DNA of 64,000 bases from the NCBI RefSeq assembly GCF_055900595.2, contig NZ_CM148325.1. One strand, given 5' to 3'. A model generated the notes under the pieces. The model saw only the letters and a list, made by a program, of their open reading frames with translations, was not told the origin of the DNA and searched no databases. Positions 7,634 to 13,290 of this stretch are shown here, piece after piece. The translations under genes were made by a program, and so were the position numbers. The first letter of the stretch is position 1, and each line of letters opens with the position of its first letter.

Positions 7634-8290
7634 TTAACAATTTCTGGTCGTGCATAAAATCAGGAACTGGAGTGGTGACGTTACTATATCCAGCGTAAGA
7701 GTGACTGGTAGCAGTGCATTAGCGAGGCCGCGCGGAACGCCATCAGTTGCTTTGTACTTATAAAATCCCACCGTAAAGGGTTGATGGAAAACCATCACGT
7801 TTGAGTAATCCGCTTTTTTATTTTTCTGGTGGATAGAGCCTTTCAGGCCGTCAAGTGCCCAGGTACAACGCTGGGTATTACAAATAAAACCATATTGTGT
7901 CGCCAGTGCTTTATCTTCCTCATTATCCCAGTCGTAATAGAGCGTTATTGAACCAGAAAAATTAGTATCACTGCTGCTTAAAATAAATTTCGCGTTATCG
8001 GAAACGGTGATTCTTTCGCCATGAATTGCCGGATCGTTCAGCATTTTAACCACCTCGCCGCCGCCCGTGGTCAACAGATAGTCCAACGATTCACCAACAA
8101 AAACATAGCCTTTCGTACCGTTACTATCCTCTGCCAGCGATAACCCCTTAATCGAGTCTGACCGCCATTGCTCGGCATGTGGAGGACTTGCGGTATTGAA
8201 AAGCAGTCCTGCGGTTAGACATCCGGTCAACGCAAATGCCAAAGAACACAAACCGGCAGCCTTAAAAAATCCCTTAAAATTCAACTTCAT
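7634..8290 (-). CDS. yidX: Predicted lipoprotein YidX
   Basis: Minus-strand ORF; internal ATG at 8290 gives MKLNFKGFFKAAGLCSLAFALTGC (signal peptide with lipobox LTGC). ORF track extends to 8407 but that N-terminal extension lacks signal features. Confidence 0.8.
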   Translation of the reverse strand: MKLNFKGFFKAAGLCSLAFALTGCLTAGLLFNTASPPHAEQWRSDSIKGLSLAEDSNGTKGYVFVGESLDYLLTTGGGEVVKMLNDPAIHGERITVSDNAKFILSSSDTNFSGSITLYYDWDNEEDKALATQYGFICNTQRCTWALDGLKGSIHQKNKKADYSNVMVFHQPFTVGFYKYKATDGVPRGLANALLPVTLTLDIVTSPLQFLILCTTRNC

Positions 8291-8425
8291 GACTAATCCT
8301 TTAAACGAGTAGCTAAGCCGTTGAAAGCATACTCTTCTTTCCCTCCTGTTTAGCGCCTGATATCCCTTTTCAGATTTCTGCCCGACGCATGTCATTTTTT
8401 TATGCATTGTTCTTTTTGTGATCTA

Positions 8426-8503
8426 AATTGTAGTACAACAATATTGGTTTGTACTACATTACACGCACGGCAAACGCGAACGTCATCACGCTGGTACTAC
8501 AAA
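8426..8503. promoter_or_regulatory. dgo promoter/operator region with three GTACTACA/TGTAGTAC motifs (putative DgoR operators)
   Basis: aattgtagtacaacaatattggtttgtactacatt (inverted repeat) and ggtactacaaaa 35-65 nt upstream of dgoR start; GntR/FadR-type repressors bind such t-GT-N-AC-a palindromes. Confidence 0.55.
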
Positions 8504-8567
8504 ATTGCCGCGTTATGCATCGATCGGGGTAAAGTAGAGAAGTACATACAGAGCACAAGGACTCTCC

Positions 8568-9257
8568 ATGACTCTCAATAAAACCGATCGCATCGTCATT
8601 ACGCTGGGTAAACAGATCGTTCACGGCAAATACGTGCCAGGCTCGCCGCTTCCGGCCGAAGCGGAACTTTGTGAGGAGTTTGCAACCTCGCGCAACATCA
8701 TCCGTGAGGTGTTTCGTTCGCTGATGGCGAAGCGGCTGATTGAAATGAAACGTTATCGCGGGGCGTTTGTGGCACCGCGTAATCAGTGGAATTACCTCGA
8801 TACTGACGTGCTGCAATGGGTGCTGGAAAACGACTACGACCCACGGCTTATCAGTGCAATGAGCGAAGTGCGAAATCTGGTGGAACCGGCGATTGCCCGT
8901 TGGGCGGCAGAGCGCGCGACTTCCAGCGATCTGGCGCAGATTGAATCAGCGCTGAACGAGATGATCGCCAACAATCAGGACCGCGAAGCGTTTAACGAAG
9001 CGGATATTCGCTATCACGAGGCGGTACTGCAATCAGTGCATAACCCGGTGTTACAGCAACTTAGCATTGCGATTAGTTCATTACAGCGGGCGGTTTTTGA
9101 ACGAACCTGGATGGGCGATGAGGCCAACATGCCGCAAACGCTCCAGGAACATAAGGCGCTGTTTGATGCGATACGGCATCAGGACGGCGATGCGGCAGAG
9201 CAGGCGGCGCTTACCATGATCGCCAGCTCGACACGAAGGTTAAAGGAAATCACATGA
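8568..9257 (+). CDS. dgoR: Galactonate operon repressor DgoR (GntR/FadR family)
   Basis: 229-aa ORF MTLNKTDRIVITLGKQIVHGKYVPGSPLPAEAELCEEFATSRNIIREVFRSL with N-terminal GntR HTH; first gene of dgoRKADT. Confidence 0.93.
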   Translation: MTLNKTDRIVITLGKQIVHGKYVPGSPLPAEAELCEEFATSRNIIREVFRSLMAKRLIEMKRYRGAFVAPRNQWNYLDTDVLQWVLENDYDPRLISAMSEVRNLVEPAIARWAAERATSSDLAQIESALNEMIANNQDREAFNEADIRYHEAVLQSVHNPVLQQLSIAISSLQRAVFERTWMGDEANMPQTLQEHKALFDAIRHQDGDAAEQAALTMIASSTRRLKEIT

Positions 9258-10132
9258 CAGCTCGCTACATCGCAATTGACTGGGGATCGACCAATCTGCG
9301 CGCCTGGCTTTATCAGGGCGACCACTGCCTGGACAGCAGGCAATCAGAAGCAGGCGTTACGCGTCTGAACGGAAAATCTCCGGCTGCGGTGTTAGCAGAA
9401 GTGACGACCGACTGGCGTGAAGAGAATACGCCAGTGGTGATGGCAGGAATGGTCGGCAGCAATGTCGGCTGGAAAGTTGCGCCGTATTTATCTGTTCCTG
9501 CCCGTTTTTCATCTATTGGCGAACAATTAACGTCTGTTGGCGACAATATCTGGATTATTCCCGGATTATGCGTTTCTCATGATGATAACCACAATGTGAT
9601 GCGCGGCGAAGAAACACAATTGATCGGCGCGCGTACTTTGGCTCCTTCCTCTCTTTATGTCATGCCCGGTACGCATTGCAAATGGGTGCAGGCCGATAGC
9701 CAGCAAATCAACGATTTTCGCACCGTAATGACCGGTGAGTTACATCATTTACTGTTAAATCACTCATTGATTGGCGCAGGTTTACCGCGGCAGGAAAACT
9801 CTGCCGATGCCTTCGCGGCTGGCCTTGAGCGCGGCCTTAATGCGCCCGCAATATTGCCGCAGCTTTTTGAAGTTCGTGCCTCGCATGTGCTAGGAACACT
9901 TCCCCGTGTACAGGTCAGCGAATTTCTCTCTGGTTTGTTGATTGGCGCAGAGGTCGCCAGTATGCGCGACTACGTGGCCCATCAACACGCCATCACCCTT
10001 GTCGCCGGAACATCGCTGACTGCACGCTACCAGCAAGCCTTTCAGGCGATGGGTTGCGAGGTGACGGCGGTGGCGGGCGACACGGCATTTCAGGCTGGTA
10101 TAAGGAGCATCGCTCATGCAGTGGCAAACTAA
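9254..10132 (+). CDS. dgoK: 2-dehydro-3-deoxygalactonokinase
   Basis: 292-aa ORF MTARYIAIDWGSTNLRAWLYQ...; overlaps dgoR stop by 4 nt (translational coupling). Confidence 0.93.
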   Translation: MTARYIAIDWGSTNLRAWLYQGDHCLDSRQSEAGVTRLNGKSPAAVLAEVTTDWREENTPVVMAGMVGSNVGWKVAPYLSVPARFSSIGEQLTSVGDNIWIIPGLCVSHDDNHNVMRGEETQLIGARTLAPSSLYVMPGTHCKWVQADSQQINDFRTVMTGELHHLLLNHSLIGAGLPRQENSADAFAAGLERGLNAPAILPQLFEVRASHVLGTLPRVQVSEFLSGLLIGAEVASMRDYVAHQHAITLVAGTSLTARYQQAFQAMGCEVTAVAGDTAFQAGIRSIAHAVAN

Positions 10133-10733
10133 ACTCCCGCTGATCGCCATTTTGCGCGGCATTACGCCCGACGAGGCGCTGGCGCATGTTGGCGCGGTGA
10201 TTGACGCTGGGTTCGACGCGGTAGAAATCCCGCTGAACTCTCCACTATGGGAACAAAGCATTCCCGCCATCGTTGATGCGTATGGCGATAAAGCGTTGAT
10301 TGGCGCAGGTACGGTACTGAAACCTGAACAGGTCGATGCGCTCGCCAGGATGGGCTGTCAGCTCATCGTTACGCCCAATATCCATAGTGAAGTGATCCGC
10401 CGCGCGGTGGGCTATGGCATGACCGTTTGCCCCGGCTGCGCGACGGCGACTGAAGCCTTTACCGCGATCGACGCGGGCGCTCAGGCGCTGAAAATATTCC
10501 CGTCATCGGCTTTTGGGCCGCAATACATCAAAGCGTTAAAAGCGGTATTACCGCAGGACATCCCGGTCTTTGCCGTAGGCGGTGTGACGCCAGAAAACCT
10601 GGCGCAGTGGATAGACGCAGGTTGTGCAGGGGCGGGCTTAGGCAGCGATCTCTATCGCGCCGGGCAGTCCGTAGAACGCACCGCGCAGCAGGCAGCAGCA
10701 TTTGTTAAGGCGTATCGAGAGGCAGTGCAATGA
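10116..10733 (+). CDS. dgoA: 2-dehydro-3-deoxy-6-phosphogalactonate aldolase
   Basis: 205-aa [24 protein letters not shown]... (KDPG-aldolase fold signature), overlapping dgoK end. Confidence 0.93.
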
Positions 10734-11878
10734 AAATCACCAACATTACTACGTATCGTTTACCTCCCCGCTGGATGTTCCTGAAAATTGAAACTGATGA
10801 AGGCGTGGTCGGTTGGGGCGAGCCCGTGATCGAAGGCCGCGCCCGCACGGTGGAAGCGGCAGTTCACGAGCTGGGTGACTATTTGATTGGTCAGGCTCCA
10901 TCGCGCATCAATGACTTATGGCAAGTGATGTATCGCGCCGGATTTTATCGTGGCGGTCCGATTCTGATGAGCGCCATCGCCGGGATCGACCAGGCGTTAT
11001 GGGATATCAAAGGTAAAGTGCTGAATGCGCCGGTCTGGCAATTGATGGGTGGCCTGGTTCGCGACAAAATTAAAGCCTACAGTTGGGTCGGTGGCGATCG
11101 TCCGGCGGATGTTATCGACGGCATTAAAACGCTACGCGAAATCGGCTTCGATACCTTCAAACTGAACGGTTGTGAAGAGCTGGGATTGATTGATAACTCC
11201 CGCGCGGTAGATGCGGCGGTCAACACCGTGGCACAAATTCGTGAAGCTTTTGGCAATCAGATTGAGTTTGGTCTTGATTTCCACGGTCGCGTCAGCGCGC
11301 CGATGGCGAAAGTGCTGATTAAAGAACTGGAACCGTATCGCCCTCTGTTTATTGAAGAGCCGGTGCTGGCGGAACAAGCCGAATACTACCCGAAACTGGC
11401 GGCACAAACGCATATTCCACTGGCGGCGGGTGAGCGCATGTTCTCACGCTTCGATTTTAAACGCGTGCTGGAAGCTGGCGGTATTTCGATTCTGCAACCG
11501 GATCTCTCCCACGCAGGCGGTATTACCGAATGCTACAAAATTGCCGGAATGGCGGAAGCCTATGACGTGACCCTTGCGCCGCACTGTCCGCTCGGCCCGA
11601 TTGCACTGGCGGCTTGCCTGCATATCGACTTTGTTTCCTATAACGCGGTACTTCAGGAACAAAGTATGGGCATTCATTACAACAAAGGCGCGGAGTTACT
11701 CGACTTTGTGAAAAATAAAGAAGACTTCAGCATGGTCGGCGGCTTCTTTAAACCGTTAATGAAACCGGGCTTAGGCGTGGAAATCGACGAAGCCAAAGTC
11801 ATTGAGTTCAGTAAAAATGCCCCGGACTGGCGTAATCCGCTCTGGCGTCATGAAGATAACAGCGTAGCAGAGTGGTAA
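10730..11878 (+). CDS. dgoD: D-galactonate dehydratase (enolase superfamily)
   Basis: 382-aa [35 protein letters not shown]...; overlaps dgoA stop by 4 nt. Confidence 0.95.
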
Positions 11879-11997
11879 TTCCTGCCACGTAAGCCCCTCA
11901 TCGGGCACTAAAACAGCAATACAAAAATATAACCCTCTGTACATTACAGGGCATGGTGAGCGGCTTCGCTATGCCCAAAATCTGGAGAAAGCTCGCT

Positions 11998-13290
11998 ATG
12001 GATATTCCCGTTAATGCAGCAAAACCGGGGCGTCGGCGTTATCTGACGCTGGTGATGATCTTTATTACGGTGGTCATTTGTTATGTTGACCGCGCTAACC
12101 TGGCCGTGGCTTCCGCCCATATTCAGGAAGAGTTCGGCATTACCAAAGCGGAAATGGGCTATGTATTTTCGGCCTTCGCCTGGCTATATACCTTATGCCA
12201 GATCCCCGGCGGTTGGTTTTTAGATCGCGTAGGTTCTCGCGTGACTTATTTTATTGCGATATTTGGCTGGTCAGTGGCGACGTTATTCCAGGGCTTTGCC
12301 ACGGGCTTAATGTCATTAATTGGTCTGCGCGCGATAACCGGTATTTTCGAAGCGCCCGCGTTCCCGACCAATAACCGGATGGTGACCAGCTGGTTCCCGG
12401 AACATGAACGCGCTTCCGCCGTGGGTTTTTATACGTCTGGTCAGTTTGTCGGTCTGGCGTTTCTGACTCCGCTGCTGATCTGGATTCAGGAAATGTTGAG
12501 CTGGCACTGGGTGTTCATTGTCACCGGCGGTATCGGCATTATCTGGTCGCTGATTTGGTTTAAGGTTTATCAGCCGCCGCGCCTGACCAAAGGCATTAGC
12601 AAAGCTGAACTGGATTACATTCGTGACGGCGGCGGTCTGGTGGATGGCGATGCGCCAGTGAAAAAAGAGTCGCGTCAGCCGCTAACAGCCAAAGACTGGA
12701 AACTGGTGTTCCATCGTAAACTGATCGGCGTCTATCTTGGGCAATTTGCGGTGGCTTCTACACTGTGGTTCTTCTTAACCTGGTTCCCGAACTATTTAAC
12801 CCAGGAAAAAGGAATCACAGCGCTGAAAGCGGGCTTTATGACCACGGTGCCATTCCTTGCGGCGTTTGTTGGCGTCCTGCTCTCAGGCTGGGTCGCGGAT
12901 CTGCTGGTACGTAAGGGCTTTTCACTGGGCTTTGCGCGTAAAACGCCGATTATCTGCGGTTTGCTGATCTCCACCTGCATTATGGGCGCTAACTACACCA
13001 ACGATCCGATGATGATTATGTGCCTGATGGCGCTGGCATTCTTCGGCAACGGTTTTGCTTCGATTACCTGGTCGTTAGTCTCTTCTCTGGCACCGATGCG
13101 GCTGATTGGTTTAACCGGCGGCGTGTTTAACTTCGCCGGTGGTCTGGGCGGCATCACCGTTCCGCTGGTGGTGGGGTACCTGGCGCAGGGTTACGGTTTC
13201 GCGCCTGCACTGGTTTATATCTCCGCCGTCGCGTTGATTGGCGCGCTCTCTTACATCCTGCTGGTGGGCGATGTGAAGCGCGTTGGATAA
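11998..13290 (+). CDS. dgoT: D-galactonate:H+ symporter (MFS)
   Basis: ORF with start taken at [35 protein letters not shown] (430 aa); ORF track extends 45 nt upstream to 11953. Confidence 0.9.

Follow-up and report, generated by a model that had tools for sequence, protein, structure and literature searches.

The three motifs that cluster ahead of the D-galactonate (dgo) operon of Escherichia coli are repressor sites for DgoR, two of which (O1 and O2) are experimentally established and one of which (O3) is predicted. In the reading that we favour for this control region, and to which we assign a probability of about 0.8, DgoR bound at O1 and O2 represses the promoter P1, and O3 is a third, imperfect operator near the basal promoter P2. 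The sites themselves are already known, O1 and O2 as characterised DgoR operators and O3 as a published computational prediction, and an earlier note drawn up from the sequence alone had recovered a real, experimentally characterised regulatory region.

The window, by which we mean the whole 64,000-nucleotide stretch that was analysed, belongs to an E. coli chromosome and carries gyrB-yidB-yidA-yidX followed by the divergent dgoRKADT operon. E. coli strain Z0117EC0005 matched positions 8250-8600 with 100% identity, and among 5,426 complete genomes of E. coli the region was found in 5,424. The RefSeq order in the matching record is recF, gyrB, yidB, yidA, hypothetical protein, dgoR, dgoK, dgoA, dgoD, dgoT and cbrA, the hypothetical protein being encoded on the minus strand at the position of yidX, the name it has in other records. 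The dgoR open reading frame (8568..9257, plus strand) encodes a GntR/FadR-family repressor of 229 amino acids; it begins at 8568, in agreement with the earlier placing of the motifs directly upstream of dgoRKADT. Its product matched PDB 7c7e (E. coli DgoR) over the full length (E = 3.7e-149), and in the record with 100% identity across 8250-8600 RefSeq names the frame at position 8568 dgoR, with WP_000174305.1 as its product. NCBIfam holds no DgoR-specific model, and the best matches there (NanR, LldR and GlcC) all fell under their own cut-offs, so DgoR is identified by its match to PDB 7c7e and by the RefSeq annotation.

The regulated structural genes are dgoK (9254-10132), dgoA (10116-10733), dgoD (10730-11878) and dgoT (11953-13290), all on the plus strand and all present in the open reading frame list and the RefSeq annotation of the matching record; the products of the last three also scored above the curated NCBIfam cut-offs. 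Stop and start codons overlap at dgoR/dgoK, dgoK/dgoA and dgoA/dgoD, which suggests translational coupling. At the far end of the operon, the convergent 3' ends of dgoT (plus strand, ending at 13290) and cbrA (minus strand, ending at 13251) overlap by 40 bp (window positions 13251-13290). A ribosome-binding site for dgoR, AAGGA, can be seen in the sequence at 8557..8561 (plus strand), and CACAAGGACTCTCCATG at this site was conserved in a comparison of ten sequences from Escherichia and its relatives. On the opposite side of the control region, the mechanically listed yidX frame (7634-8407, minus strand) is 257 amino acids long, with a start at 8407 that would reach the dgo control region. The RefSeq YidX has 218 amino acids and ends at 8290, and the longer 257-aa frame is probably not used. 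A role of O1-O3 in serving the divergent yidX found no support, the sequence upstream of 8412 being poorly conserved and gapped across species.

The strings quoted in the earlier note were all present at the coordinates it gave, namely aattgtagtacaaca at 8426-8440, tttgtactacatt at 8448-8460 and ggtactacaaaa at 8493-8504. A search of both strands of the whole 64-kb window for TTGTASTACAA, tolerating up to one mismatch, returned exactly three matches, all of them before dgoR: 8428-8438 (no mismatches), 8449-8459 (one mismatch) and 8492-8502 (one mismatch). Relative to the dgoR ATG these correspond to -140..-130 (O1), -119..-109 (O2) and -76..-66 (O3). For the 7-bp core GTASTAC, 2.6 occurrences were expected in the window and seven were found, three of them in the dgo control region. 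That the three motifs cluster by chance is exceedingly improbable: the motif is short and A/T-rich, which is all that speaks for coincidence, whereas shuffled sequence yielded a mean of 0.70 such matches per 64-kb window, the chance of three inside 75 bp is ~2e-7 by a Poisson estimate, the positions are conserved in about 78 species, and O1 and O2 have been tested by experiment.

Each copy is a full 5-N-5 inverted repeat, TTGTA-S-TACAA, and the description of the copies as half-sites in the earlier note was wrong. The palindromic pattern that it saw in copies 1 and 2 does exist, but is a trivial outcome of the copies being self-complementary. Likewise, its two operators overlapping promoter elements are in fact three whole inverted repeats rather than two operators built from three half-sites, and only copies 1 and 2 overlap the inducible promoter P1, copy 3 lying just ahead of a second promoter. 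The degenerate DgoR consensus of Singh et al. 2019 is reportedly 5'-TTGTA(G/C)TACA(A/T)-3'; O1 fits it at 11/11 positions, O2 exactly and O3 at 10/11, with T2 replaced by G. The family signature GT-N3-AC is intact in the O3 of the window, GT and AC placed 3 nt apart being the mark of the operator class to which DgoR is assigned (PMC4494728). Each 11-bp inverted repeat is sized for one DgoR dimer, and one dimer per inverted repeat has been described (PMC11705089). Centre-to-centre distances are 21 bp for O1-O2, 43 bp for O2-O3 and 64 bp for O1-O3, or about 2, 4.1 and 6.1 helical turns. These values are close to whole turns, so the three sites lie on one face of the DNA.

O1 (8428..8438) is the published IR1, a perfect 11-bp inverted repeat (TTGTAGTACAA) lying over the -35 region of P1, and O2 (8449..8459) is the published IR2 (TTGTACTACAT, one mismatch), which overlaps the P1 -10 hexamer. 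The two inverted repeats have been described as such (PMC11705089; PMC12288454 supplement, Fig. S1), IR2 with its one mismatch (PMC11705089). The earlier note had proposed a comparison with published operators, and the IR1 sequence CTAAATTGTAGTACAACAATAT proved to be identical to window positions 8423-8444 (PMC11705089). In Sort-Seq, a repressor-type (positive) expression shift was seen at -140..-110 and was gone both in a dgoR deletion and in galactonate, and DgoR was enriched by affinity chromatography on DNA covering -145..-110 (PMC6003448). An electrophoretic mobility shift assay (EMSA) with a 55-nt IR1+IR2 probe gave an apparent KD of about 0.5 micromolar for DgoR (PMC11705089). The interpretation of the motifs as autoregulatory DgoR operators thus fits the Sort-Seq data, the affinity capture and the identity of the IR1 probe (PMC6003448, PMC11705089). 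Compared with IR1 and IR2 of E. coli K-12 (Singh et al. 2019, J Bacteriol 201:e00281-18; Belliveau et al. 2018, PNAS, PMC6003448), O1 and O2 of the window are the same sites, and the -140..-110 interval, TACATT and TGTGA are alike (PMC6003448, PMC11705089); across the dgo promoter as a whole, the only departures of the window strain from K-12 are in the spacers, at 8446-8447, 8504 and 8544.

P1 is the galactonate-inducible, CRP-dependent promoter. Its -10 hexamer TACATT (8455..8460, plus strand) lies inside O2 and is the wild-type -10 of the Sort-Seq study (-120..-100), in which it was judged a non-optimal hexamer (PMC6003448). The CRP site spans 8414..8435, with its left half, TGTGA, at 8417-8421 and its right half overlapping the left half of O1; from the Sort-Seq data, TGTGA at -160..-140 was assigned to class II activation by CRP (PMC6003448). 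From the -10 hexamer and a CRP centre placed at -41.5, we infer that transcription from P1 starts near 8466-8467. The CRP centre (8424.5) lies 30.5 bp before the first base of TACATT (8455), which agrees with -41.5 given an estimated start at ~8466. At 8413-8424, the CRP half-site TTTTTGTGATCT carried 1.76 bits per column in 79 sequences, and a CRP site TTTTGTGATCTAAATTGTA has been predicted in Salmonella (PMC7708049). A generic scan of 8200-8700 for sigma-70 promoters and terminators returned nothing at threshold; this fits weak or activator-dependent promoters and gives no independent support for the P1 and P2 hexamers.

A Dam GATC site (8420..8423) falls inside the CRP site, 4 bp before O1. 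In Salmonella, dgoR is expressed in a bistable, Dam-dependent manner, and a hemimethylated GATC has been reported upstream of it (PMC7708049); A8421 of the window GATC, at -147 from the dgoR ATG, occupies the same position as that hemimethylated GATC (PMC7708049). A second GATC (8522-8525), in the spacer of P2, was moderately conserved among the species compared.

The mechanism at P1 is known from the literature. DgoR at O1 and O2 lies over the -35 region and the -10 hexamer TACATT as well as the right half of the CRP site, and in that position it excludes RNA polymerase and probably CRP too. D-galactonate frees P1 of DgoR. As the operon begins with dgoR, the circuit is autoregulatory.

The predicted third operator, O3 (8492..8502; TGGTACTACAA), has one mismatch, at position 2, and by the estimated transcription starts its centre lies at about +31 relative to P1 and about -45 relative to P2. 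Suvorova et al. 2015 give three DgoR sites for E. coli b4479 in their S1 file, the last of which, CACGCTGGTACTACAAAGTTG, is O3, and likewise three apiece for E. fergusonii, Enterobacter 638, Cronobacter, Klebsiella, Shigella, Serratia and Salmonella (PMC4494728). The same three E. coli sites were thus reported by Suvorova, Korostelev and Gelfand as a prediction only, with no analysis of position and function (PMC4494728); what is added here is the fixed distance between O3 and P2, the finding that O3 is never perfect, and a wider sample of 79 sequences.

Sort-Seq placed an RNA polymerase site, active in glucose, at -70..-30 from the ATG (PMC6003448). We infer from it a basal promoter, P2, active in glucose, and take TAAAGT (8530..8535, plus strand), which lies within this polymerase site inside the box GGTAAAGTA (8528-8536), as its -10 hexamer; the start of P2 is accordingly predicted near 8542. 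The candidate -35 hexamer TTGCCG (8505..8510, plus strand), separated from it by a 19-bp spacer, is a weak and putative assignment; it falls inside the -70..-30 polymerase site, and its TG at 8506-8507 is conserved. The GGTAAAGTA box was nearly invariant (1.81 bits per column, 79 sequences), beyond what a -10 hexamer needs. The two G upstream of TAAAGT are also conserved, yet they form no TGn extended -10 motif.

Conservation was assessed in 80 species loci obtained by genome scan (L001-L080), of which 78 had enough upstream sequence; with the window these made 79 sequences. The earlier note had staked its reading on conservation in other enterobacterial dgo promoters, and all three copies were indeed kept, at fixed positions, in about 78 species of Enterobacteriaceae and Erwiniaceae. 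O1 was perfect in 73 of the 79 sequences (1.94 bits per column), and an unconstrained scan found O1 and O2 to be 21 bp apart in every sequence. O2, located for the per-site counts with this 21-bp spacing imposed, carried 1.76 bits per column (79 sequences). O3 was present with at most two mismatches in 77/79 and, at 1.62 bits per column, stood out as an island from its flanks, which had 0.46 (31 bp upstream) and 0.93, the spacers between islands having 0.46-0.49 bits per column. One contig, labelled 'Chryseobacterium sp. 18061' (L056), has a dgoR locus of enterobacterial type (90% protein identity), its O1 and O2 in the usual places, and is probably a contamination or a mislabelled assembly.

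A perfect O3 was found in none of the 79 sequences, 77 having one or two mismatches and two having more; these sequences are phylogenetically related, so that only a few independent events stand behind the imperfection. Positions 2 and 8 are the variable ones, and almost every sequence departed from the consensus at exactly one of them. The Escherichia/Salmonella/Klebsiella/Citrobacter group has A or G at position 2 and the consensus A at position 8, and most other species have T at position 2 and G or T at position 8. Counted as (position 2, position 8), the pairs were (T,G) in 42 sequences, (T,T) in 19, (A,A) in 12, (G,A) in 4, (C,G) in 1 and (G,G) in 1, and the pair (T,A) was never seen in the 79 sequences. 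Switching between the two main states would require either a perfect site or an intermediate with two mismatches. As far as such a pattern can tell, the permanent imperfection of O3 suggests selection for intermediate affinity.

Spacing was less uniform on the upstream side of O3 than on its downstream side. O2 and O3 were 43 bp apart in 70/79 sequences, 42 bp in six and 44 bp in three, and the distance from O3 to TAAAGT was 38 bp in 76/79, even where the O2-O3 distance differed. The position of O3 is thus bound more closely to that of P2 than to those of O1 and O2. The same constancy, set against the 42-44 bp drift of O2-O3, is what might be expected if O3 were conserved as an upstream or UP-like element of P2 beside its -35 region, its likeness to the DgoR motif being a relic devoid of repressor function. 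This explanation, which we consider unlikely though still to be reckoned with, also draws on the Sort-Seq polymerase footprint, which at -70..-30 reaches the right half of O3 and its CAAAA stretch (PMC6003448), on the fact that no repressor-type shift has been reported at O3, and on O3 never being perfect. It does not account for the left half of O3, where GTA (8494-8496) lies outside the polymerase footprint and is nonetheless 97-100% conserved, nor for the conserved positions (T1, G3, T4, A5 / T7, C9, A10, A11), which exactly match the symmetry of the DgoR palindrome. Moreover, the Affinibrenneria locus (L079) keeps the P2 box although its O3 is degenerate, with four mismatches, from which it follows that P2 alone does not need O3. 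An operator placed over the upstream contacts of a promoter is the usual geometry of a repressor, and a contribution of O3 to P2 is in that respect compatible with a third operator.

About equally improbable, in our estimation, is that O3 serves P1 as an auxiliary downstream operator, either through a short loop with O1 and O2 or as a roadblock at ~+31, in the manner of lac O2 and gal OI. The helically phased spacings of 21, 43 and 64 bp, with the 43-bp distance conserved in most sequences, would suit such an arrangement, as would the tetrameric binding to DNA of the GntR-family protein Atu1419 (cited in PMC11705089). DgoR, however, has been reported as dimers only (PMC11705089; RegulonDB note, PMC10767902), and to form a loop of 43-64 bp costs much energy. 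A change of +/-1 bp between O2 and O3 is tolerated in nine species, whereas the distance from O3 to P2 is fixed, and neither Reg-Seq nor Sort-Seq reported a repressor signal at O3.

O3 also lies inside the leader of the P1 transcript as placed here (a 5' untranslated region of roughly 100 nt), where it might act as an RNA element, either a structure or a small-RNA target. RNAalifold did pair the UACU of O3 with the AGUA of the GGTAAAGTA box, but the consensus for 16 species amounted to only -0.66 kcal/mol, and as a candidate leader element it was rejected. The four O3-box pairs were invariant bar one single-sided change, so there was no covariation, and the single-sequence fold (z-score +0.62) was no better than shuffled sequence. 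The palindrome itself, 11 nt of the form 5-N-5, cannot form a hairpin, since the loop would be 1 nt. A search of Rfam at a permissive E-value gave only a spurious lncRNA match (E = 0.25). We regard a leader-RNA function as very improbable.

Returning to O3 as an operator, it is most likely a weaker DgoR site acting on the basal promoter P2, on the main promoter P1, or on both, to judge from its sequence and placement. Several observations weigh against it. The Sort-Seq text mentions a repressor-type shift only at -140..-110 and none for -76..-66 (PMC6003448), and the Reg-Seq text calls no extra dgoR sites in a -115..+45 construct that includes O3 if centred on P1. P2, in addition, is visibly active in wild-type cells on glucose. 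Finally, position 8 is G or T in most species, a change that breaks the AC of GT-N3-AC, and the affinity of O3 may accordingly be low. A full-text literature search for DgoR with 'IR3' or a third operator found no relevant paper, and among the papers examined no experiment was found that shows DgoR on O3. The papers of the Chaba laboratory up to 2025 that were examined keep to a two-operator model of dgo throughout, and the EMSA probes that they describe were either 55 nt with IR1+IR2 only or an undissected 250-bp promoter fragment (PMC11705089 for the 55-nt probe).

If DgoR does bind O3, it would be a steric obstacle to the contacts that polymerase makes at the -35 region of P2 and further upstream. 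Occupancy of the site would then cap the basal synthesis of DgoR, a form of negative feedback, and O3, at about 4 and 6 helical turns from O2 and O1, may also reinforce the repression of P1. Taken further, the conservation pattern could describe a two-promoter, three-operator switch in which a functional O3, held at sub-maximal affinity, sets the steady-state level of DgoR; we put this forward tentatively, as somewhat more doubtful than probable. Were it true, O3 would set the induction threshold of dgo, via steady-state DgoR, independently of O1 and O2.

The dgo arrangement may be compared with other systems. The operators of FadR, PdhR, LldR, GlcC and ExuR/UxuR (TKGT/ACMA boxes) are similar A/T-rich palindromes that bind one dimer each. 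Unlike these and other FadR-subfamily operators, the TTGTA half-site is specific to DgoR, and three operators are spread over two promoters in place of a single one. With lac O1/O2/O3 and gal OE/OI the dgo region shares a strong promoter operator accompanied by a weaker, helically phased leader site, this site being the predicted O3. LacI and GalR, in contrast, assemble into tetramers or higher-order loops spanning 92-401 bp, and DgoR has been reported as a dimer, with sites here 43-64 bp apart.

Regulation of dgo is under selection in the mammalian gut, and dgoR mutations have been reported in gut-adapted E. coli. Knowledge of what O3 does to the basal repressor level would for this reason refine models of enteric sugar-acid use, an incremental rather than a conceptual advance. 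Natural variants of O1 were also encountered. In E. coli clone D i14 (L081:680-690) O1 reads TTGTAGTGCAA, with a base of the AC signature altered, and the 35-bp context of this O1 was matched exactly by only one record in the complete-genome collection, its own. Strain YZ22PE165 (L084:194-204) has TCGTAGTACAG at O1, and TTGTAGCGCAA is listed as the O1 of Shigella flexneri in the table of Suvorova et al. (PMC4494728). Such O1 variants in natural isolates may partly derepress the dgo operon, which would agree with the selection on dgo regulation that has been reported within hosts.
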